A model generated the notes under the pieces. The model searched no databases and had not been told where the DNA came from. It worked only from the letters and a program-made list of their open reading frames with translations. Positions 1-12,257 of a DNA stretch of 37,432 bases are shown in pieces. The translations under genes and the position numbers were made by a program. Each line of letters opens with the position of its first letter. Positions within the stretch are counted from its first letter, which is position 1. Source of the DNA: a virus. Its lineage: Duplodnaviria > Heunggongvirae > Uroviricota > Caudoviricetes. The DNA is taken from IMG/VR virus record IMGVR_UViG_2724679140_000013; one strand, written 5' to 3'.

Positions 1-1002
1 TTACCCTCTATTGTCAAAAGGGTTCAATTCAACAGCAGCCTCTAAATGACCTGGAGCAAAATGCGCATAACGCATAGTCATTTTTATATCGCTATGCCCC
101 AGTATTTTTTGCAACACAAGAATATTTCCGCCCCGCATCATAAAATGACTGGCAAACGTGTGACGTAGCACATGAGTTAATTGCCCATCAGGAAGCTCGA
201 TCTTCGCTCTCTTAATTGCAGCGTCAAAAGCCTCATAACATGGTGAAAATAGCGCTCCTCGTTTTTTAGGAAGCATAGCCTGCAATTGAGGTGAAATCGG
301 TACAGTGCGGTTCTTCTTTCCTTTAGTTTTGACAAATGTGATTCGACCGGGCAGTACTTGAGATTGTTTTAATCCTTCTGCTTCACTCCACCGAGCACCA
401 GTCGCAAGCCCAATACGAACAACAACCCCCAAATCTTTATTCCGTGACTCATCACACGCAATCAGAAGGCGTTCAATCTCATCTACATACAGAAACGCCA
501 GTTCCTTTTCTTCCTCACGAAACTTGCGAATACCAGTCAGGGGGTTTTCACCAGACCACTCTCCAAGGCGCTTCAGTTCGGCAAAAACAGCATGTAGATA
601 TGACTGCTCACGATTAACAGTTGCTTCACTAAGTTTCTTCTTCCCCTTTGGATTCCATTCACCTGATAATCGCCGCTCCCTGTAGGTGGCAAACATATTT
701 TTATCAAATTGAGAAGCAAACGGATCACCTAACCTAGAACAAATCGCCTCGAGTTTAGCCCTTCGCTCTTCACCGGAAGACAGTGTTTTACCGTACATAT
801 CAAACCAGCGAGCAACCAACTCGGAAAGGTGGGGGCCAGAATCATCCTGAAACTCGCTCCCCAAATTACTATTCATTAAACGGCGCTCATAAGAGAGCGC
901 CTCACCCTTAGTCGCAAACTGTTTACGAATACGCTTTCCCGATGCTCCATACGGGTAACACTCGCAAAGCCATTTACCAGTAGGTAGTCTTCGAACACTC
1001 AT
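1..1002 (-). CDS. int: Tyrosine recombinase / phage integrase
   Basis: 333 aa; catalytic signature ATGARWSE, HVLRHTFASHF, LGHSDIKMTMRYAH (R, HxxR, Y); first gene at the prophage left end as in P2. Confidence 0.9.
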   Translation of the reverse strand: MSVRRLPTGKWLCECYPYGASGKRIRKQFATKGEALSYERRLMNSNLGSEFQDDSGPHLSELVARWFDMYGKTLSSGEERRAKLEAICSRLGDPFASQFDKNMFATYRERRLSGEWNPKGKKKLSEATVNREQSYLHAVFAELKRLGEWSGENPLTGIRKFREEEKELAFLYVDEIERLLIACDESRNKDLGVVVRIGLATGARWSEAEGLKQSQVLPGRITFVKTKGKKNRTVPISPQLQAMLPKKRGALFSPCYEAFDAAIKRAKIELPDGQLTHVLRHTFASHFMMRGGNILVLQKILGHSDIKMTMRYAHFAPGHLEAAVELNPFDNRG

Positions 1003-1007
1003 TCTAA

Positions 1008-1394
1008 TTAAGACTTAATCCATCCCATCATCAACATCAGAGATACCGCCGTATTAGAAACAGACTGATTTTGATATACTTTTCTATTCTTTTTTTTATC
1101 TGCGAAAGGCTCAAAGGCCATATCAAGTTGTTTAGTCAATTCCTCTGCCAACAATTTGAGGTCATCCATATTTTTAACTTGTGTAGACAATTCTGGTGTA
1201 AGTCTTCCTTGATTATAAAGTACAGCTATAAAGTCAGCCGAGGTAGCCAATTTGTTTTTATAAGATGCCTTTTGCCACTCAAGGGCGTTTGCCTTATGTA
1301 ATGTTCCACCTTCATACCATTCAGAGGCATAACCATGAGATGCAAAAACAAACAAGATATAAAAAAGGACTAATTTTAAATAATTACGCTGCAT
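1008..1394 (-). CDS. Hypothetical secreted/periplasmic protein (128 aa), AT-rich moron
   Basis: N-terminal signal peptide LKLVLFYILFVFASHGYA; SD-like AAGGA 8 nt upstream of the ATG; stop lies 5 nt before the int start (coupled). Confidence 0.6.
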   Translation of the reverse strand: MQRNYLKLVLFYILFVFASHGYASEWYEGGTLHKANALEWQKASYKNKLATSADFIAVLYNQGRLTPELSTQVKNMDDLKLLAEELTKQLDMAFEPFADKKKNRKVYQNQSVSNTAVSLMLMMGWIKS

Positions 1395-1425: not shown

Positions 1426-2073
1426 TTACACAAAATAAATTAAAAATGTAATCACCATACCCAAAATGAGTCCAACAATGAACACAATCAAAAATTCTTT
1501 AGTATATTCTGTTAATAGTTCACTAATGCAGTGTCTATTTTTAATATTGCCATTGCTCTGAGATATATTTTTATTAGTCTGCTGATCTAACCACGACAAT
1601 GCAGATTGCAACTGAGAACGAGTAAGATCGTTTAAACGGCCTGTACCGAAATTGATATGGCAATATCGAAGAAGTTTTTGTCTAATTTCATTACTTTCAC
1701 TGTTGCGAAGAAGGAGGCTTACAAGTAATTTACAGGCGTCATGATCCTTGTGTCGGTCAAGCATCGCATTGAGAAAGCTAATTGCGGTTGGATACTGATT
1801 CACCGTCATCTTATCGACACTATCAACACCGATTTCAGCATGAAGTTTACGCCAAACAACAAACGATTCTTCCTTGCTGGCATCAACAATCTTGTCAACC
1901 AACAACTTCAGTTGATGTCGCTGAGCCTTAACTAATGGGCGCTCATCAGGCCTACCAGAAGGGATTGCAATATTGACTGTATGCCGATCATCATATCGCT
2001 CTATCTGAATATTCTTTTCGTGGTAATCACGCCCAGCAACGCGATTGTCTGAACCGTTTGAGTTGACCGCCAT
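1426..2073 (-). CDS. Hypothetical tail-anchored membrane protein (215 aa), AT-rich moron
   Basis: Strong SD GGGAGGTG just upstream; single C-terminal TM FLIVFIVGLILGMVITFLIYFV; N-terminus carries RVAGRDYHE, which matches the repressor C-terminus. Confidence 0.65.
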   Translation of the reverse strand: MAVNSNGSDNRVAGRDYHEKNIQIERYDDRHTVNIAIPSGRPDERPLVKAQRHQLKLLVDKIVDASKEESFVVWRKLHAEIGVDSVDKMTVNQYPTAISFLNAMLDRHKDHDACKLLVSLLLRNSESNEIRQKLLRYCHINFGTGRLNDLTRSQLQSALSWLDQQTNKNISQSNGNIKNRHCISELLTEYTKEFLIVFIVGLILGMVITFLIYFV

Positions 2074-2091
2074 GTCACCTCCCTGCTAGAG

Positions 2092-2505
2092 CTAACCCTT
2101 AGTTTCGTTATAGTCACGACCAGCAATACGATGGCCCTTGCCAGAAGCTCTTATTGTACCTGGAGCCAAACTACCAGCGGTCAAGGCTGCCAAAGCCGCC
2201 GCCTTAACAGCCAAAGGTGCAGAGCGATATATTTTAATTAGCTCAATCTCATCTTCAGTGGCATTAGGGATGCCATGTGCACGACTACCAGAAAGTATGT
2301 AATAGACATCTACTCCGCAGCGCCTTCCCAAGAGATTCAGCATAGCTGCATCCGGTGTAGTCACCCCTCTTTCATACTTCCCCCAAGTCTTTGTAGAAAC
2401 TTCAAAAATAGACGCCATATCATCCTGAGTCATGCCAGTTTTCTCTCGTTCCTCCCGTAATCGACGTCCAATAATGACACTTAATTCCTCTTTTTCTGTT
2501 GACAT
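2092..2505 (-). CDS. XRE-family helix-turn-helix immunity repressor (CI/C analogue)
   Basis: 137 aa; HTH region GMTQDDMASIFEVSTKTWGKYERG; divergent from the early operon, position equivalent to P2 C / 186 cI. Confidence 0.8.
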   Translation of the reverse strand: MSTEKEELSVIIGRRLREEREKTGMTQDDMASIFEVSTKTWGKYERGVTTPDAAMLNLLGRRCGVDVYYILSGSRAHGIPNATEDEIELIKIYRSAPLAVKAAALAALTAGSLAPGTIRASGKGHRIAGRDYNETKG

Positions 2506-2527
2506 AGGAAGTTTTGTTCCCTAAAGT

Positions 2528-2543
2528 AATTTCACGTGCAATT
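2528..2543. promoter_or_regulatory. Near-palindromic candidate operator in the 59-bp divergent switch region
   Basis: AATTTCACGTGCAATT (one mismatch from a perfect dyad, centred on CACGTG), between the repressor and the first early gene. Confidence 0.3.
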
Positions 2544-2564
2544 AGATGATCACAATGTACCACT

Positions 2565-2771
2565 ATGAATCAAGTTAGTCACGACACCAAGTCACGCATT
2601 CCGCGTAATACCGCCACAGGTCCAAGACTGGCACTTAGGCTGTCCCTCGAGGAGCGAGCCATCATTGATGAAATGGCCGCCAAAGAACAACGCTCATCCT
2701 CTAACATGGCGCGCATGATCTTCCTTCGAGGCCTGGAGCTGACCCAGAAAGAACAAAACAAATCTTCCTGA
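2565..2771 (+). CDS. Ribbon-helix-helix DNA-binding protein, first early gene (Cro/Apl-like role inferred)
   Basis: 68 aa; RHH-like RLALRLSLEERAIIDEMAAKEQRSSSNMARMIFLRGLE; divergent from the repressor. Confidence 0.6.
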   Translation: MNQVSHDTKSRIPRNTATGPRLALRLSLEERAIIDEMAAKEQRSSSNMARMIFLRGLELTQKEQNKSS

Positions 2772-2787: not shown

Positions 2788-2991
2788 ATGTCAGGTATAA
2801 CCATCAATATCAATGTGAATGCCCCCTATGTATCCCTGCAGAAATATGCAGAGATAACAGGTATCCCTCTTAATACATGCAAAAAGATGTTGGCTGACGG
2901 TCGAATTATTATCCGACCAAAACGCGCCAAAATGGAAAAGCCAGAAGTAAACCTTGTGGCAATGCTGAAAGACGCTATCGCTAACAGTTAA
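2788..2991 (+). CDS. cox: Cox-like regulator/excisionase
   Basis: 67 aa; SD AGGAGG; pattern YVSLQKYAEITGIPLNTCKKMLADGRI resembles the P2 Cox HTH region; position after the switch. Confidence 0.55.
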   Translation: MSGITININVNAPYVSLQKYAEITGIPLNTCKKMLADGRIIIRPKRAKMEKPEVNLVAMLKDAIANS

Positions 2992-3669: not shown

Positions 3670-3912
3670 ATGGGCAAAGAATATAAAACTCTCATTAACA
3701 AAGCACTTGAGCGTTTTTATTTTCGCTTAAGTGCATCAGGCGCTCATGCTGAACGTGCAGCCCGTGACTCATTGACCAGGGCAATCCGGAGTCTGTATGA
3801 CGTGGCTTTTTACGCTGATGATCTGGATGCACTTAACGAACTTTCCGAGCTGATCTGTGCCGCAGAATGCGGGGAACATATTGAACCGTATAAGCTGGGG
3901 AATATTGCATGA
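3670..3912 (+). CDS. Hypothetical early protein (80 aa)
   Basis: Start chosen at MGKEYK (ATG 3670, AAAGGG upstream) rather than the 3619 ORF start, which overlaps the previous gene. Confidence 0.5.
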   Translation: MGKEYKTLINKALERFYFRLSASGAHAERAARDSLTRAIRSLYDVAFYADDLDALNELSELICAAECGEHIEPYKLGNIA

Positions 3913-4022
3913 GTATATTTATCTCATGGCTTGTTCTGATTATTTCGGTGGCCTGCGCCATTGGGATTATGCGAATTATTCATTCAGTAAAAAAGATTGA
4001 ACGCTTTTTCACTGGCGAATAA
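3909..4022 (+). CDS. Possible small hydrophobic peptide (37 aa)
   Basis: ATGA start/stop overlap with the preceding ORF; MSIFISWLVLIISVACAIGIMRII is one TM helix; below the ORF-track size cutoff. Confidence 0.35.
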   Translation: MSIFISWLVLIISVACAIGIMRIIHSVKKIERFFTGE

Positions 4023-4108
4023 CAGAGCAAATAAAACCACAGGTTAAATAAGAAAATGTAAAAACAATCCGCATTCGCGGAGGTATTCGCACACGCCAAG
4101 GAGGCGTA

Positions 4109-4312
4109 ATGGCAATTAAGCATTTTCCTGTCGTTCGTTTTACCTCCAGAGGACGTGAATACGAAGTCGACGAACGCCTGATTACCACAATCGACAAACA
4201 CCGTTCAGAAAAGGATGCACATCACATCTATCTCACTGACGGCACTTACTTCTGCGCCACGAATGTGGTGCGGGTGAACCTTATCCGACAGGTACAGGAG
4301 TCACGCAGATGA
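4109..4312 (+). CDS. Hypothetical early protein (67 aa)
   Basis: Strong SD AAGGAGG 5 nt upstream. Confidence 0.6.
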   Translation: MAIKHFPVVRFTSRGREYEVDERLITTIDKHRSEKDAHHIYLTDGTYFCATNVVRVNLIRQVQESRR

Positions 4313-4861: not shown

Positions 4862-5065
4862 ATGAACAAAAAGACCTGGTTTCGCGCATACATGTGGGCG
4901 CTGGTATGCGTCCTCGTTTCTCTCATTCTGTATGCAGGACTACTCCCCCGAATGATTTCATCAGACAGCTCCTTCTTGGTATTGCTGGGCATTTTCATTG
5001 CCATGCTGTACCCGGCAGGCGTTGTTCGCCTTTTCAGTAAGTACATCAAGGAAATCAAACAATGA
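4862..5065 (+). CDS. Small two-TM membrane protein coupled to the SPFH gene
   Basis: 67 aa; two hydrophobic helices (WALVCVLVSLILYAGLL, FLVLLGIFIAMLYPAGVV); ATGA overlap with the next gene. Confidence 0.6.
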   Translation: MNKKTWFRAYMWALVCVLVSLILYAGLLPRMISSDSSFLVLLGIFIAMLYPAGVVRLFSKYIKEIKQ

Positions 5066-5892
5066 AGAAACTCAAACTCTTTCAGATTATCCCGCTTTTT
5101 GCCGCCATCCTGCTGGTTGGTTGCGATCGCGTTGAGCCAGGTAATGTGGGCATCAAAGTCAACAAACTGGGCGACGACAAAGGCGTCGGTGAAGTGGTTG
5201 GCGTTGGCCGCTACTGGACAGGCTGGAATACAGAGGTTTACATCTTCCCGACCTTCAAACAAATGAAGACCTACGATGAGCCGTTCAGCTTTCAGATGAG
5301 TGACGGCACAACCATCGGCTATCACATCGGTGTGGCCTACAAGGTTGATCCATCCAAAGTTACTACAGTGTTTCAGACCTACCGCAAAGGCGTGGACGAC
5401 ATTACCGACACTGACCTGCGCCAGAAGATCGCCGATGCACTCAACCGACTGGCCAGCAAAATGACCACCGATAAATTCATCGACGGTGGCAAGTCTGAAC
5501 TGCTGGATTCAGCACTTAAAGATATTCAGGAAGAGATGACCCCCATCGGTATTCAGGTCATGAGCCTCTCTTATGTCGGTAAACCGGAATATCCGCCAAC
5601 CGTTATCGACAGCATTAACGCCAAAGTCACGGCAAACCAGAAAACCCTGCAACGCGAACAGGAAGTCAAGCAACGCGAAGCAGAAGCCAACATGTTGCGC
5701 GCAGAAGCTGCCGGACAGGCTGATGCCATTCGCACAAAAGCCCAGGCTGAAGCCGACGCCATTCGTTTACGCGGTGAAGCTCTGCGCCAGAATCCCGGCG
5801 TTATGGAGCTGGAAGCAATCAACAAATGGAACGGCACGCTGCCGCAATACATGACCAGCAATACCGCTGTTCCGTTTGTTCCGGTGAAGTAA
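5062..5892 (+). CDS. SPFH/band-7 (prohibitin/flotillin-like) lipoprotein
   Basis: 276 aa; lipobox LLVGC; SPFH core followed by an Ala/Glu/Arg-rich coiled coil (QREQEVKQREAEANMLRAEAAGQADAIRTKAQAEADAIRLRGEA). Confidence 0.85.
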   Translation: MKKLKLFQIIPLFAAILLVGCDRVEPGNVGIKVNKLGDDKGVGEVVGVGRYWTGWNTEVYIFPTFKQMKTYDEPFSFQMSDGTTIGYHIGVAYKVDPSKVTTVFQTYRKGVDDITDTDLRQKIADALNRLASKMTTDKFIDGGKSELLDSALKDIQEEMTPIGIQVMSLSYVGKPEYPPTVIDSINAKVTANQKTLQREQEVKQREAEANMLRAEAAGQADAIRTKAQAEADAIRLRGEALRQNPGVMELEAINKWNGTLPQYMTSNTAVPFVPVK

Positions 5893-6931: not shown

Positions 6932-9754
6932 ATGACGGCAGAGTACATCAGGGACTGGCAACAGCCGCGCCACGCAGTGGGACGTGAAGGAACGGGGATC
7001 CCCGTTCCTGAATCCGCGCTTTCCTCCTGGCTGGATGCCTACCGGGCAGAGAACGAGCGCCGCCAGGAAATGGCTGATGCGGCGTTCTCCGCCACGCCGC
7101 TGGGCAACCTGATTAATAAAAGCCTGGATGCACAGGAAAAACAGGACAAAACCATCACACTGGCAGGAGACGCCAGAAAACAGGTACGCGGTGCGGTGGA
7201 TGAAGCCATGGCCTCGCTGCGCCTGCTGCCGTCCTATCTGCGCGATCCGCTTATTCGCCACCTCTCCTTCCTGCGCAAAAAACAGGAAGCCGATCGCCGG
7301 AAAGGCAAAAAGAGCTGGCAGGCTGAACGCTACGCGCGCGGAACCCTGCGCAAAATATTCGAACGTCTGGACCGCACCGACCACCGCTGGCTGACACCGG
7401 GTTATCGCTCCCTTGCCGGACGCGAACGCCTGGATGATTTGCTTTACCTGCCGCAGCTCAACAAGCACCAGATACAGACGCTGGCCACCATGACGGCGGC
7501 GATGTTCAGCAGCACCTTCGAAAAACTCTGCGATGGCTTTGGCGCGACTGATGGCGAGCTGACCATGGAGGTAACGCTGAAGGCGTATCAGATGCTGGCC
7601 CGCATGGCGTTACACCTGCACGCCATGCCTCCGCATTATGACGCACTGACAACAGACAAAGACCGGAGGAACGAACCGGACACGGAGTTGCTGCCGGGCG
7701 CAATCCTTCGCCTGACCTGTGCGGAATGGTGGAAACGCAAACTGTGGCTGTTACGTTGCGAGTGGCGGGAAGAACAACTCCGCGCCGCCTGTCTGGTTTC
7801 CAGAAAAACATCGCCCTATCTGAGCCAGGACGCGTTAAGCGAGTTTCGAGCACAGCGCGAGAAAACACGCGATTTCCTGAAAAGTTTCATGCTGGAAAAC
7901 GAAGACGGGTTCACGATTGATCTCGAGACGGTGTATTACGCGGGAGTAAGTAATCCGGTTCATCGTAAGGCAGAAATGATGGCCACCATGAAGGGGCTGG
8001 AACTTCTGGCCGAAGCCCGTGGCGACAAAGCGGTGTTTCTGACTGTCACCTGCCCGTCAAAATACCACGCCACAACAGAGAACGGTCATCCGAATCCCAA
8101 ATGGAACGGGGCCACCATGCGCGACTCCAGCGATTACCTGGTTAACACGTTTTTTGCGGCGGTCCGCAAGAAACTGAACCGCGACGGCCTGCGCTGGTAT
8201 GGCATCCGCACGGTGGAGCCTCACCATGACGGCACCGTGCACTGGCATATGATGGTCTTTGCTCATCCGGAAGAAATCGACACCATTGTGTCCCACACCC
8301 GCGATATTGCCATTCAGGAAGATCGTCACGAGCTGGGTGATGATATTACCCCACGCTTTAAGGCGGAGTACGTCGACGGCTCAAAAGGCACACCGACCAG
8401 CTACATCGCCACCTACATCGGGAAAAACCTGGACAGCCGTGCCGTGGATGGCATCGACCCGAAAACGGGCAAGCCACGCGTTGACCACGAAACCGGAAAA
8501 TCAATGGCCGAGAGCGTGGAACGCGCCATCGGCTGGGCGCGCCTTCACCGGGTCCGCCAGTTCCAGTTCTTTGGTATCCCCTCCCGTCAGGTGTGGCGTG
8601 AACTGCGCCGCCTTGCCAGCCAGATGGCTCGCAACCCGGAAGGACCGCAACGGCTGAAGGATGACGCAATGGACGCGGTTCTTGCTTCCGCTGATGCCGG
8701 ATGTTTTGCCACCTACATAGAGAAACAGGGCGGCGTACTTGTTCCACGCAAGGACTACCTGATTCGCACCGCCTACGACCTCGCAGATGAGCTGAACGAT
8801 TACGGTGAACAGAGCGTACAGATTTACGGGATCTGGTCACCGCTCATCGGGGAGTCTTCCCGCGTATGCACGCATCCGGACAACTGGAAGCTGGTAAGAC
8901 GCAAACCGGAAGCGGAAGACAGCGCCCGCGAAAATGGTTTTGACCTTCAGGGCGGCCCTGCCGCCCCTTGGACTCGTGGCAATAACTGTCCCCGTATACA
9001 GGAAACGGGCAACAACGGGACAGAACAGCCGGAAGAACGGCCAGCACCGTGGCCGCAGCTTCCTGACGGCGTTGACGTGAATGAATGGATGCGCTCACTG
9101 AAACGGCACGAACACCGGGCGCTGATGCGTTCGCTGCGTGACAAACAGGCAAAAAACAGCAGTGATGAAATGCAGAACTGGACACAGAGCCGCAAACAGC
9201 CACAGCCTTTGCCTGATAACCACGAGTTACTCGCTAAAGAATGGCGGGAGTCTGCTGAATCTCTCGGCCTGCATATCGGTGAACAGCAGATGCAGCACCT
9301 GTTACGGGGCGGCAGTCTGTACGTTGACGGCAGCATCATTGCACCGCAGGGATTTGAAATTGTACGCAAACCGGATACCCGCCCGGACAGCCGAATCACG
9401 CAGCTCTGGCAGCGCCTGAGCCGTAACCACGGCGTAAGCAGCACGGAGATCCGCCATAACCCGGTCGCCAGCTATCTGGAACAGCTGGGGGCATCAGACC
9501 CCGAAGCCGCCGCACGCCTGGCATCCACACTTCAGCAAGACCAGAACACCATGAAAACACCCGTTACCGTGCTTTCTGACATGCTGCGCGCCATCCGCGA
9601 CGCAGAGCACGCACAGAGAATCAGTGAAACCACTGAACGCGCCCGCCGCAAAGCAGACCTGCTGCGGGGTGGCCTGACCAGTGGAAACAAAAAACAGACA
9701 GAAACGGGATTCACAAATCCCGTAAATGAGCAAAAAACGCGCCGCGATATATGA
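6932..9754 (+). CDS. A: Rolling-circle replication initiation endonuclease (P2 gpA family), with a long C-terminal extension
   Basis: 940 aa; HUH-type motif HHDGTVHWHMMVF and paired-tyrosine motif SYIATYIGKN as in P2 A. Confidence 0.9.
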   Translation: MTAEYIRDWQQPRHAVGREGTGIPVPESALSSWLDAYRAENERRQEMADAAFSATPLGNLINKSLDAQEKQDKTITLAGDARKQVRGAVDEAMASLRLLPSYLRDPLIRHLSFLRKKQEADRRKGKKSWQAERYARGTLRKIFERLDRTDHRWLTPGYRSLAGRERLDDLLYLPQLNKHQIQTLATMTAAMFSSTFEKLCDGFGATDGELTMEVTLKAYQMLARMALHLHAMPPHYDALTTDKDRRNEPDTELLPGAILRLTCAEWWKRKLWLLRCEWREEQLRAACLVSRKTSPYLSQDALSEFRAQREKTRDFLKSFMLENEDGFTIDLETVYYAGVSNPVHRKAEMMATMKGLELLAEARGDKAVFLTVTCPSKYHATTENGHPNPKWNGATMRDSSDYLVNTFFAAVRKKLNRDGLRWYGIRTVEPHHDGTVHWHMMVFAHPEEIDTIVSHTRDIAIQEDRHELGDDITPRFKAEYVDGSKGTPTSYIATYIGKNLDSRAVDGIDPKTGKPRVDHETGKSMAESVERAIGWARLHRVRQFQFFGIPSRQVWRELRRLASQMARNPEGPQRLKDDAMDAVLASADAGCFATYIEKQGGVLVPRKDYLIRTAYDLADELNDYGEQSVQIYGIWSPLIGESSRVCTHPDNWKLVRRKPEAEDSARENGFDLQGGPAAPWTRGNNCPRIQETGNNGTEQPEERPAPWPQLPDGVDVNEWMRSLKRHEHRALMRSLRDKQAKNSSDEMQNWTQSRKQPQPLPDNHELLAKEWRESAESLGLHIGEQQMQHLLRGGSLYVDGSIIAPQGFEIVRKPDTRPDSRITQLWQRLSRNHGVSSTEIRHNPVASYLEQLGASDPEAAARLASTLQQDQNTMKTPVTVLSDMLRAIRDAEHAQRISETTERARRKADLLRGGLTSGNKKQTETGFTNPVNEQKTRRDI

Positions 9755-9830: not shown

Positions 9831-10790
9831 ATGAAAATTTGTATCGATGACGGCTCCACCAACATCAAGCTGGCATGGACTGAGAACGGCGAACGCCGCA
9901 ACGCCATCAGCCCGAACAGCTTCAAGTCGGAATGGTCTGCGCCGTTCGGTGGAACGCAGCCCGCAAACTACATGCTTGATGGCGTGCGCTATGGTTTTGA
10001 TCCGGTCAGCGATCGCTTTGTCCAGACGACCGACACGCAATACCAGTACAGCGATGTGAATGTCATTGCCATTCATCACGCGCTGGTCAAATCAGGCATC
10101 ACACCACAGGAAGTGGATGTGGTTGTCACCCTGCCACTGAGCGAATATTTCGACACCAACGCACAGCCGGACATGGCCAACATCAACCGCAAAAAAGCAA
10201 ACGTCATGCGCCCGGTGGCGTACCAGAACGGAAAAGCATTCACTATCCGTAACGTACGGGTTATGCCTGAATCCATTCCGGCTGGTTTTAAAGCACTGGC
10301 TGACATGAGTCCGTTTGAATCCCTGCTGATTGTGGATTTAGGCGGAACCACGCTGGATGTGGCAAAGGTTCAGGGACAACTGGCAGGTATCAGCCAGGTG
10401 TTTTGCGATCCACACGTAGGCGTTTCCCTGATGGCCGATGCCGTACTGTCGGTGATGGCCACTAACGGTATGCGTACCAGTCACCACATCGCCAATACCA
10501 TTATCGAACATCGCCATGATGAAGCCTGGCTGCGCCAGCACATCCACAATGACGCGCATTACGCCAGCCTGATGGCGGTTATTCGTGAAAAGGAAGAAAC
10601 ACTGAAACAACGCGTGATCCGCGCGCTGGCGGGTTTTTCGGGTTACGGGCGGGTGATGGTTGTCGGTGGAGGGGCGGAGATTGTGGCACCCGCTATCCGC
10701 GAAGCCTGCGGAGTTAATGCGACTTTCATCGCGGACGGGGTGCCACAGTTTGCTCTGGTTAACGGGCTGTACGCAATGGACAAGGAGTAA
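9831..10790 (+). CDS. parM: Actin-like plasmid segregation ATPase ParM/StbA
   Basis: 319 aa; collinear with plasmid R1 ParM as I recall it (MKICIDDGSTNIKLAW, ISPNSFKSEW, YQYSDVNVIAIHHAL, VMPESIPAG, LIVDLGGTTLDV, VMVVGGGAE). Confidence 0.9.
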   Translation: MKICIDDGSTNIKLAWTENGERRNAISPNSFKSEWSAPFGGTQPANYMLDGVRYGFDPVSDRFVQTTDTQYQYSDVNVIAIHHALVKSGITPQEVDVVVTLPLSEYFDTNAQPDMANINRKKANVMRPVAYQNGKAFTIRNVRVMPESIPAGFKALADMSPFESLLIVDLGGTTLDVAKVQGQLAGISQVFCDPHVGVSLMADAVLSVMATNGMRTSHHIANTIIEHRHDEAWLRQHIHNDAHYASLMAVIREKEETLKQRVIRALAGFSGYGRVMVVGGGAEIVAPAIREACGVNATFIADGVPQFALVNGLYAMDKE

Positions 10791-10794
10791 ACCA

Positions 10795-11109
10795 ATGACG
10801 ACACCAACCAGACGGATAAGTTTCTATCTGAAGCCAGCTGCAGTCAAGAGTGAACGGGAAGCGTGTAATTATCTCGACAGCCTGCCAGCCTCCGAACGCA
10901 GCCGCGCGCAACGCGCGGCATTTCTGGCTGGACTGGCACTCATTAAAAACGATCCTGCCTTTGCTTACTGGCTGGCTGAATGGTCAGAGGGGGAAAATAT
11001 GCCTGCCAACAATCACATATGGGGCTGGCATAACAGCGAGCCTGTTGGTTGCAAAAATCAGAATATAAGTCAAATAAAAAAGAATATTCAGGAATTTTTT
11101 CCTGAATGA
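10795..11109 (+). CDS. parR: ParR-like centromere-binding adaptor (RHH)
   Basis: 104 aa; SD AGGAG; RRISFYLKP...LDSLPASERSRAQRAAFLAGLALIKNDP parallels the R1 ParR N-terminal domain; directly downstream of parM. Confidence 0.75.
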   Translation: MTTPTRRISFYLKPAAVKSEREACNYLDSLPASERSRAQRAAFLAGLALIKNDPAFAYWLAEWSEGENMPANNHIWGWHNSEPVGCKNQNISQIKKNIQEFFPE

Positions 11110-11467: not shown

Positions 11468-11785
11468 TTATGCAACCTGACAGGAATGTTCTGCCGTCGC
11501 AGTAACAACCCCACCGGAATACCCAAACTTAAAATCCCACCCCAGGATGTTTAGCATGATAAACAGTCGATCAATGGTATGATTATCTAACTTACCATTA
11601 ATGATTTCGCTTACTCTTGGTTGGGTTGTTTCCAGCAATTCAGCAGCTTCTCGCTGGGTAAGACCGCGCTCCTGAATCATTTTTCGGATAATAACCATTA
11701 ATTGGGCCCGGATGTGTTTATCACTAGCTTCATTTACAGAGCTACTTGATGACGCATAAGGGTTTTTGACTACGACGAATTCCAT
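11468..11785 (-). CDS. XRE-family HTH antitoxin (HigA-like)
   Basis: 105 aa; GLTQREAAELLETTQPRVSEIINGKLDNHTIDRLFIMLNILG is the typical HigA/XRE antitoxin pattern; downstream of the toxin. Confidence 0.8.
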   Translation of the reverse strand: MEFVVVKNPYASSSSSVNEASDKHIRAQLMVIIRKMIQERGLTQREAAELLETTQPRVSEIINGKLDNHTIDRLFIMLNILGWDFKFGYSGGVVTATAEHSCQVA

Positions 11786-11855
11786 AACTCTCCAGCCTTA
11801 ATCAGCGATGTTGCTGACATTGATTATGTTATATCAGATTTGAGATACCTGCAAG

Positions 11856-12257
11856 CTATCTTAAGCCATTTTTACGACGATACTCCACTAATTGTTTGTA
11901 TCTTGCGGCAGCTGTCTCATATTCTTTTTTTGACACACCATTTGTCTTTTTCTTAAATGTATGAAGTATGTAAACAGACTCCGCAAATTTCGCAACGTAA
12001 ATCATACGATAAGAATCACTACTCTTGATGGTTAATTGCATTGCGTAGCGACCAATCGTTTCCCGCATTGATTTTTTTTGAGCAGGTGGAACCCCCAAGG
12101 CATCATCACCATCCACTGGAAAATCGAAACTGTCGAAAGAATGAGGACAATCGCTCTGCAGTGCAACAAGCTCAAAATTTATCCTTTCTCGAACAGCTTC
12201 AGGATAACTATCAATTTGTTTCTGAATTTTATCATTCCAATATGTGATGTCTTTCAC
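11856..12257 (-). CDS. Gp49/RelE-HigB-superfamily toxin
   Basis: 133 aa, GTG start with SD GAGAGG; YRMIYVAKFAESVYILHTFKKKTNGVSKKEYETAAARYKQL matches the Gp49-like RelE/ParE toxin C-terminal pattern; toxin-first order as in higBA. Confidence 0.7.
   Translation of the reverse strand: MKDITYWNDKIQKQIDSYPEAVRERINFELVALQSDCPHSFDSFDFPVDGDDALGVPPAQKKSMRETIGRYAMQLTIKSSDSYRMIYVAKFAESVYILHTFKKKTNGVSKKEYETAAARYKQLVEYRRKNGLR

Follow-up and report, generated by a model that had tools for sequence, protein, structure and literature searches.

A peptide shared by the tail of a putative repressor and the N-terminus of the adjacent Flk_N-domain membrane protein in P2-like prophages

Immunity region of the prophage

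The stretch of DNA analysed here (the window) comprises 37,432 nucleotides (nt) of the IMG/VR record IMGVR_UViG_2724679140_000013 and represents a P2-like prophage of E. coli with its insertion site beside yecA. A prophage of E. coli M8 matches it with 99.9% identity, and 523 out of 5426 complete E. coli genomes, approximately one in ten, have related sequence. We describe a short peptide that occurs at the C-terminus of a 137-amino-acid (137-aa) helix-turn-helix (HTH) protein of the XRE family and again at the N-terminus of the 215-aa membrane protein encoded by the next gene. Related modules are also present in Klebsiella, Salmonella, Yersinia, Serratia, Erwinia and Ralstonia prophages.

In the immunity switches of P2 and 186 (C/Cox, CI/Apl, Tum antirepressor) the integrase and repressor genes point leftward, and the Cox-like and early genes rightward. 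The window has this layout in common with them. Specifically, the gene of the HTH protein has the same direction as int and is divergent from a Cox-like gene, and the early genes lie, together with an Arc-like and the Cox-like gene, on the strand opposite to the integrase-repressor group (Table 1). Because of this layout and the protein family we treat the 137-aa protein as the putative immunity repressor. It matches the Pfam models HTH_31 (E 2.5e-10), HTH_19 and HTH_3 and PHROG families of transcriptional repressors, and its HTH is RstR/DicA-like. It differs from the P2 and 186 repressors in being of an unrelated XRE type with a conserved module of helix and tail and without an S24 peptidase domain. 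Moreover, the repressor gene adjoins int in P2 and 186, and no membrane protein is known to be encoded between the two.

The peptide shared by the two proteins

The repressor ends in ...GHRIAGRDYNETKG and the 215-aa protein begins with MAVNSNGSDNRVAGRDYHEKN. The corresponding 27-nt blocks on the minus strand (2104-2130 and 2017-2043) are identical at 21 of 27 nucleotides and at seven of nine residues. Four of the six nucleotide differences are synonymous (CGT/CGC, GGT/GGG, GAC/GAT, TAT/TAC) and two are conservative (I/V, N/H). A preliminary description of the window, made from the letters alone, had reported the peptide R-[IV]-A-G-R-D-Y-[NH]-E at these two termini, and our inspection of the open reading frames (ORFs) and of the nucleotide differences agrees with it. 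The window has no further copy of the motif in any ORF.

Taken by itself, this match is suggestive and not decisive, as it comes from a single window in which about 45 gene pairs are adjacent. Among 300 composition-preserving shuffles of both proteins, one gave a shared 9-mer with seven or more identities. The match could be a product of chance, a relic of duplication or gene fission at the junction of the genes, or an element that acts as DNA, for example a recombination linker or protein-binding repeat, without any present function of the peptide. The shortness of the match, the comparable match among the shuffles and the distance of only about 60 nt between the copies are in line with such an origin, which is weighed below against the data from related loci.

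The junction of the two genes is compact. In related loci the gap between the repressor and membrane-protein genes is 2-18 nt, or the genes overlap by ATGA, which suggests coupled translation. In the window both ORFs share the reading frame and are separated by TAG-CTC-TAG-CAG-GGA-GGT-GAC (2074..2094). Fusion of the ORFs by read-through or frameshifting was considered and rejected: two TAG codons intervene, and the frame relation is not conserved elsewhere, where gaps measure 2-17 nt or the genes overlap by ATGA. Since this relation varies among loci, read-through is unlikely to matter.

Table 1. Features of the immunity region (positions in the window unless a locus is named)
Feature	Position	Strand	Basis and remarks
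Integrase	1..1002	- (leftward)	ORF
128-aa secreted protein	1008..1394	- (leftward)	ORF
215-aa tail-anchored membrane protein, Flk_N	1426..2073	-	PF27202 (precomputed); PHROG 5825
C-terminal transmembrane anchor, residues 194-215, FLIVFIVGLILGMVITFLIYFV	1429..1494	-	Hydrophobic sequence; AlphaFold2 (AF2) helix 191-214
Helical Flk_N-like domain, predicted cytoplasmic, residues 45-170	1564..1941	-	AF2 helices 49-171; predicted local distance difference test (pLDDT) 74-89 for 41-110
Motif unit 2, residues 22-38, IQIERYDDRHTVNIAIP	1960..2010	-	Related beta-type segment; 72% mean identity
Motif unit 1, residues 3-21, VNSNGSDNRVAGRDYHEKN	2011..2067	-	Contains the shared 9-mer (2017-2043); pLDDT about 40
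Intergenic spacer, 18 nt, GGAGG ribosome-binding site	2074..2091	-	Sequence
137-aa XRE-family HTH protein, putative immunity-type repressor; stop TAG 2092-2094	2092..2505	-	ORF; Pfam; PHROG repressor families
C-terminal tail motif, residues 118-136, IRASGKGHRIAGRDYNETK	2098..2154	-	Contains the shared 9-mer (2104-2130); predicted disordered
Conserved helical segment, residues 84-112, ..DEIELIKIYRSAPLAVKAAALAALTAG	2170..2256	-	AF2 helices 84-95 and 98-112; 73% mean pairwise identity
HTH DNA-binding domain, residues 10-72	2290..2478	-	AF2 pLDDT about 90; lineage-variable, several specificity types
68-aa Arc-like ORF	2565..2771	+	PHROG 3431 'Arc-like repressor', E 1.5e-27
Cox-like gene	2788..2991	+	PHROG 575
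Third-protein gene of Ralstonia-type loci	3786..4265 (L022); 2202..2681 (L060, Ralstonia phage YO107_2)		PHROG 17537, no assigned function

Occurrence of the motif in related loci

The comparison covered 42 loci with a motif-bearing Flk_N protein. Sixteen are enterobacterial and include the window, the E. coli loci L002 and L003, twelve genome loci (Rosenbergiella, Izhakiella, Mixta, Enterobacter, Kosakonia, Erwinia, Symbiopectobacterium, Hafnia, Serratia) and one Yersinia locus. Seven loci are distant (L021-L024, L026, L028, L031) and nineteen have a variant motif (L036-L054), with contexts taken from viral contigs. Both copies are present in all 16 enterobacterial, all seven distant and all nineteen variant-motif loci, and the gene directly upstream of the motif-bearing Flk_N gene codes for an XRE repressor with a matching tail in 42 out of 42 cases. 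The motif is thus found on both sides in 42 loci and on neither side in 7, and discordant loci number 0. Ralstonia phage YO107_2, a near-duplicate of L022, shows the same both-sided pattern. Together with Escherichia phage 520873 it makes up the deposited phage records in which we found the module, and both records are unannotated.

Repressors P0336 and P0364 served as negative controls. They have the same HTH type and another C-terminus, and their P2-like prophages are without an Flk_N gene. In loci L055-L059 (viral contigs, GC content about 0.6) the Flk_N protein has no motif and opens with a helix, MQSGDDGLAKLAEKLHG...; the XRE repressors encoded upstream end in a helical domain, ...KVERILKLVVNR, and have no tail motif either. 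An alternative shared helical motif was sought in these five loci and none was significant (p 0.09-0.45). In L012, which comes from the degrading symbiont genome of Candidatus Symbiopectobacterium, the membrane protein (3991..4170) is truncated to 55 aa and both copies are degenerate, reading AGNNF in the repressor and AVRDF in the membrane protein. This decay is consistent with a joint relaxation of selection.

Among the closest relatives the motif is nearly universal. The strict tail pattern is found in 115 of the 120 closest repressors, and two more have the variant AGGDY (117/120). A typical repressor ends in ..[IV][NS]V[ST]G.G[NQH]R[VI]AGRD[YF][NH]E.KK, and nearly all tails of the 117 motif-bearing repressors finish with K, G or E (..NENKK, ..HEGKK, ..NETKG). 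On the other side, 120 out of 120 closest membrane-protein cluster representatives (Escherichia, Klebsiella, Raoultella, Serratia, Erwinia, Kosakonia and others) start with M.VNS.G..NR.[AS]GRD[FY].E.... The preliminary description had expected AGRDY to be co-conserved in homologues of both proteins, its absence from either pointing to a chance match; co-conservation is what we find. The 9-mer named there is real, and its length was understated: in relatives the similarity between the copies extends over 19-24 residues, and the membrane protein carries a second unit. For instance, in L006 the repressor end INISGQGNRVAGRDFNENK and the membrane-protein start VNSTGEQNRVAGRDFNENK agree at 14 of 19 positions.

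Co-variation of the two copies

An exhaustive search with a hidden Markov model (HMM) profile of the membrane protein gave 138 cluster representatives. Most of them start with a related, different motif (G.VG.VAGRDI.N, NR.AGRDY.E.N, QVAAGDI.N); true Flk does not have the motif. At lineage shifts both partners change together, through the forms NRVAGRDF, GDVAGRDII, QVAAGDI and VGQ..G.[VI]N..G[LI].[LI]N. The variants matched within loci are NRVAGRDY/F in enterics, P[IV]GD[IV].GRD[LI] in the Ralstonia type, SVGQ.I in L024, VGGGVAGRDI in L026, QQF.G.V..V..GD[IV].N in L036-L041 and VGQ...G.[VI]N..G[LI].[LI]N in L042-L049 (Table 2).

Table 2. Repressor tails and membrane-protein N-termini in distant and variant-motif loci
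Loci	Repressor tail	Membrane-protein N-terminus
L021	VTVSGSNNRAAGRDYHEKE (end of protein)	IDVEGSKNRVAGRDYIE
L022, L023, Ralstonia phage YO107_2	MQVFHQAP[IT]GDI[FA]GRD[LI]	KQEF.G.VGDVAGRD[IV][IV]N
L024	KSQVFHGSVGQSIS	RQEFNSSVGQAIQ
L026, L031	VGGGVAGRDIVN	VEGGVAGRDITN
L036-L041	GQQFNGPVG.VT.GDVVN	QQF.G.V.QVAAGDIKN
L042-L049	VGQYIHGSVNQ.GLTLNVGG	VGQVAEGDINN.GI.INL
L050	FHGAVGQAIEGGISN	FHGSVGQVAAGDIQN
L051-L054	QQT..G.V.QQASGDI.N	QRF.G.V.QVAAGDIHN

The score of a tail against an N-terminus is 59.3 within loci and 42.0 across loci, and none of 20,000 permutations reached as high a value (20 non-redundant loci). For the seven non-enteric loci alone the permutation test gives p = 0.008. Enterobacterial copies mainly keep one consensus, and the strong co-variation signal comes from the deeper lineages. 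The presence of the motif at both termini in each of the 42 loci, together with the co-variation, confirms the observation made in the window, and the decisive evidence is therefore comparative.

Co-variation bears on the question of who recognises the peptide. One could think of a single host factor that binds both tails, for example a protease or adaptor such as ClpXP/SspB, Lon or FtsH, or else a chaperone or targeting factor, with the membrane protein acting as a decoy or competitor of the repressor. A short conserved motif in a disordered terminus is what one expects of a degron or short linear motif, and the phage has an SPFH-family gene (5062..5892); the SPFH proteins HflK/C modulate FtsH, and FtsH controls lambda CII. 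However, the motif diverges strongly among phage lineages, always in step in both proteins. A conserved host receptor would hold the motif constant and is therefore disfavoured, although the argument depends on the host range of each variant and is not airtight. The KK and KG ends of the tails are also unlike the non-polar ssrA end, and in the fused proteins described below the motif is internal, between HTH and Flk_N. We consider a common host partner very unlikely.

Domain structure and conservation of the repressor

The AF2 model of the repressor, built from an alignment of 26 repressors, shows a confident HTH (residues 1-72) followed by two helices (84-95, 98-112); the tail (113-137) is disordered, with pLDDT 44-54. 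Repressors of clearly different HTH sequence types occur, yet the helix APLAVKAAALAALTAG and the tail are retained. The helical segment always accompanies the tail motif, and both are replaced together in the motif-less P0336 and P0364. Two known ways of repressor inactivation were considered and rejected. Self-cleavage of the LexA/lambda-CI type does not fit, as there is no Peptidase_S24 match, the protein has only 137 aa, and its C-terminal part consists of two helices and a disordered tail; an Ala-Gly cleavage site belongs to that type, and the AG within AGRD lies nine residues before the end of the protein. A degron of the ssrA/SspB type does not fit, as the C-terminus lacks a non-polar LAA-like tripeptide and ends in KK or KG.

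Mean pairwise identity in the repressor is 49% for the HTH, 73% for the helices, 42% for the spacer and 70% for the motif. In the membrane protein it is 64% for unit 1, 72% for unit 2, 40% for the linker and 69-80% for Flk_N. Motif segments show 64-72% mean identity against 19-42% in the adjacent spacers, and segments predicted to be disordered are conserved to the level of folded domains. As in the repressor tail, disorder is predicted for residues 1-38 of the membrane protein (pLDDT <45), so that the earlier placing of both copies in unstructured terminal tails holds. No Pfam family matched the motif peptides when they were scanned in isolation.

At the DNA level, 56% of the differing codons are synonymous in each copy (14 loci), and the identity between the copies is 64.6% within the same locus and 62.4% between different loci. 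Abundant synonymous differences without an excess of DNA identity within loci indicate that the peptide is under selection and that recent gene conversion is not the cause of the likeness, as had been suggested from the window; for the enterobacterial set recent duplication or gene conversion is ruled out by these figures. The distant loci have a GC content of 0.55-0.67 and wholly different codon usage. A match without present function is hard to reconcile with a motif at both termini in 42 beta- and gamma-proteobacterial loci of such different codon usage, with the synonymous excess, with partners that change in concert and with the concordance of presence and absence. Within the limits of sequence analysis the comparative data already refute it, and we give it practically no weight.

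The Flk_N-type membrane protein

The membrane protein carries two motif units. The invariant positions among 16 diverse homologues are G7, N10, R11, D16 and E19 in unit 1, and unit 2 has I24, D28, T32, N34 and P38. In Yersinia, Hafnia and other relatives the consensus of unit 2 is xGRD[LV][VI]N[IL], with examples such as QFIGRDLVNISIP (Yersinia), VQAGRDVISILLP and HAARDINIF. The domain that follows corresponds to PF27202, named Flk_N, and the protein belongs to PHROG 5825 (E 6.8e-86). It has an Flk_N domain but is not Flk: the match to the NCBIfam model of Flk (NF007987) is limited to residues 41-172 and scores 54.1 bits (E 1.5e-14), the cut-off being 353 bits. Flk, a regulator of flagellar export in Salmonella and E. 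coli, has in common with the window protein the Flk_N-type helical domain and the single C-terminal anchor. It differs in being chromosomal, in starting with MQP..G without the motif and in not being paired with a repressor.

The 215-aa protein has one hydrophobic segment, formed by its last 22 residues with nothing after it, and no signal peptide, as in tail-anchored proteins. Flk itself has been established experimentally as tail-anchored (PMC6794478). It is likely for both these reasons that the N-terminal motif and the Flk_N domain of the window protein face the cytoplasm, the compartment of the repressor.

Flk_N could itself be the binding module. In such an arrangement the N-terminal motif of the membrane protein would be an autoinhibitory pseudo-ligand and the repressor tail the true ligand, both copies competing for one phage-encoded groove instead of pairing directly. 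This would explain the co-occurrence and the co-variation among lineages, the receptor evolving with the phage, and also the weak pair-specific signal within enterics. Moreover, the best, non-significant fold matches of Flk_N are the C-terminal domains of Red-beta and Sak, small helical binders of tail peptides, and residues 49-148 show a weak similarity to PHROG 245 'anti-repressor Ant' (E 1.7e-4). On the other hand, those fold matches have E above 1, AF2 leaves the N-terminal motif undocked on Flk_N with residues 1-38 at pLDDT <45, and a third motif-bearing protein has no Flk_N domain. We regard a receptor function of Flk_N as unlikely, though worth keeping in mind.

A third carrier of the motif and single-chain proteins

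The third protein is encoded by the next operon gene in Ralstonia-type and related loci (L022, L026, L028, L031, L060). It is a multi-pass membrane protein of about 130 aa that starts with the same motif, e.g. MNRQDFHGPVGQVAGRDIIN, and has no Flk_N domain. Three consecutive gene products therefore share the motif in these phages. Neither the membrane protein nor the third protein matched a defence system in PADLOC.

In other phages the two domains of the window pair are joined in one polypeptide. In P0254, residues 1-79 match HTH-type repressor families and residues 82-236 match PHROG 5825, the family of the window membrane protein; the similarity of P0254 to the Flk_N family in hhalign has 90.8% probability (E 1.2e-6). 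PHROG 17822 matches the HTH of the window repressor as well as the Flk_N portion of P0254. The single-chain proteins have one motif-like segment, N/G-rich and of beta type, between HTH and Flk_N, whereas the window pair consists of two chains with a copy of the motif on each; P0254 has no transmembrane anchor. In addition, P0227 (270 aa) has the regulatory N-terminal domain of the Rha family fused to an Flk_N-like segment. The Flk_N module thus combines with more than one type of phage DNA-binding or regulatory domain.

Possible role of the shared peptide

With moderate confidence we propose that the shared peptide is a homotypic docking motif which would couple the repressor to its membrane partner and so affect repressor availability. 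The motif may be a modular docking element of about 20 residues, folding as one beta-strand/Gly-turn 'rung' with the core Q.F.G.VG..A.G[RD]D[IVFY]..N, which in the window has the form [IV]N.SG..NR[VI]AGRD[YF].E. The flexible C-terminal tail of the repressor would present one such element, and the cytoplasmic N-terminus of the membrane protein one or two. The membrane-protein gene starts 2-18 nt downstream, and the protein would be translated from the lysogenic transcript of the repressor. Pairing of the two tails would attach part of the repressor pool physically to the inner membrane, and in Ralstonia-type phages it would extend to the third, small multi-pass membrane protein. In this way the pair would rebuild non-covalently the HTH-Flk_N architecture that other phages have in a single chain. 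The membrane partner might then set the amount of active repressor and provide an input to the maintenance of lysogeny, to induction or to superinfection immunity.

Variants that change in step, the third carrier and the HTH-Flk_N fusions favour direct coupling, or binding to the phage's own Flk_N, over a host protease or adaptor. The preliminary description had suggested that a selected peptide links the two proteins and that they compete for one partner, through a degron recognised by ClpX, SspB or Lon or through tethering or decoy control. Judging from the comparative sequence data, the selection on the peptide and the link between the proteins appear to be right, and tethering is better supported than degron or competition, which the same variants, third carrier and fusions leave without support.

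Several points weigh against coupling by docking. Physical pairing of the tails is something we infer from sequence patterns, and the regulatory outcome is a guess: the repressor might be sequestered or stabilised, or the pair might serve exclusion or abortive infection. AF2 gives no structure for either tail, although predicted disorder of both monomer tails would be expected if the segments fold on binding. Within Enterobacterales alone the pair-specific signal is weak (10.8 versus 10.35 identities of 19, p = 0.05). The motif is short and contains several charged residues, and the tails may pair stably only as oligomers or with the help of a third surface. A shared receptor would give the same pattern, and no PDB structure matched the Flk_N domain in Foldseek at E below 1.

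Control of a DNA-binding regulator by a membrane-bound or aggregating partner is known from other systems. RseA controls sigmaE and PtsG controls Mlc from the membrane, and RstC of CTXphi aggregates the repressor RstR. The outcome we propose is the same, but those systems use dedicated folded binding domains, whereas in the window the motif is duplicated on both partners. We know of none among RseA-sigmaE, Mlc-PtsG and RstC that is encoded as a pair of repressor and partner in a P2-like lysogeny operon.

The gene arrangement also resembles that of amyloid signalling pairs. In these pairs a motif of about 20-25 residues is found on the C-terminus of one product and on the N-terminus of the product of the adjacent, collinear and nearly abutting gene; one partner may have two repeats, and 'all-in-one' fusions occur (bioRxiv 10.1101/2020.01.06.895854). 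Bab/Agp with BASS11 works in a defence island of an E. coli prophage (bioRxiv 10.1101/2024.11.07.622273). With the fungal HET-s/NWD2 (HRAM), the bacterial BASS1-10 and Bab/Agp BASS11 the window pair has in common the layout of terminal motifs, the two units on one partner and the fusions; the core of its motif is rich in G, N, Q and V, while R, D and E occur in the motif as well. The terminal motif on adjacent gene products is present in the 42 loci and fused architectures are found as well, but the partners are different: amyloid pairs join an NLR/TPR sensor to a Bell/HeLo pore-former, whereas the window pair consists of an XRE repressor and an Flk_N protein, and it is located in a P2-like lysogeny operon and not in a defence island. 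We do not class it as BASS, because its partners are not a sensor NTPase and a pore-forming effector.

From its sequence pattern the pair may still work like a BASS system. One partner would then nucleate a fold of the cross-beta or beta-solenoid type, on which the other is templated, giving a prion-like, all-or-none switch that turns the repressor off or the membrane protein on. The reasoning from adjacent genes is the one by which the BASS motifs were discovered (bioRxiv 10.1101/2020.01.06.895854); two units face one, HTH-Flk_N fusions correspond to the 'all-in-one' forms, the core has alternating hydrophobic residues beside G, N, Q and V, and Bab/Agp offers a precedent in an E. coli prophage (bioRxiv 10.1101/2024.11.07.622273). 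Against this stand not only the lack of an NLR-type sensor and a Bell/HeLo effector but also the motif itself, which is more charged (R/D/E) and is unrelated to any model compared. BASS motifs are enriched in G/N/Q/V/I and poor in K/P/L, but the tails here have lysines at their ends. No Pfam model covers the peptides, the AF2 monomers show coil, and a constitutively co-expressed pair would require a trigger. We consider amyloid-type signalling doubtful.

In its most elaborate form it would be a prion-like lysis-lysogeny switch. Each motif would be a unit of one beta-solenoid rung, two on the membrane protein and one on the repressor. On a trigger such as membrane stress or superinfection, the membrane protein would nucleate a cross-beta assembly that captures the tails and strips the repressor from DNA in an all-or-none, self-propagating manner. 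Such a switch seems to us improbable. If it were true, amyloid signalling would be extended from immunity pairs of NLR and effector to the control of transcription factors, and loss of the repressor could conversely release the membrane proteins and make them active as effectors of abortive infection or lysis.

Whatever the mode of contact, the wiring of a repressor to one or two proteins of the inner membrane suggests that lysogeny, immunity or exclusion receives an input from the membrane. It would bear on how signals other than SOS reach the repressors in P2-like prophages. The pattern in about 40 relatives of this prophage, which range from enterobacteria to Ralstonia, points to a physical link between phage repressor and cell membrane; the feature is a conserved component of the immunity region in a large group of P2-like prophages, and apparently an undescribed one. 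A limited literature search found no published description of motif pairing between a repressor and an Flk_N protein, which does not prove novelty. The rule that the same motif occurs on the terminus of the neighbour applies here outside NLR/effector systems and could serve as a simple genomic finder of new protein couplings.

Other genes of the window

In the switch region, the RefSeq record of E. coli M8 has a 45-aa hypothetical protein at 2579..2716 on the minus strand, opposite the Arc-like ORF of the plus strand. The Arc-like ORF (2565..2771) is probably the real gene. The early rightward operon contains at 5062..5892 (+) the gene of the 276-aa SPFH/band-7 protein, which has a lipoprotein-like N-terminal signal. 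It is conceivable that this gene is linked to membrane-based control of the prophage switch.

Further downstream, 6932..9754 (+) codes for a gpA-like replication endonuclease. The ORF of 940 aa is intact, and in the near-identical M8 record it is a frameshifted pseudogene. At 9831..11109 (+) a ParM-like actin and a partition/stability protein are encoded within the integrated P2-like prophage, which could be a sign of a plasmid-like mode of maintenance or of a moron. Finally, two adjacent small ORFs of 105 aa (XRE-like HTH) and 133 aa at 11468..12257 (-) have the look of a toxin-antitoxin pair; in the RefSeq record of strain M8 this region is annotated as a frameshifted hypothetical gene.

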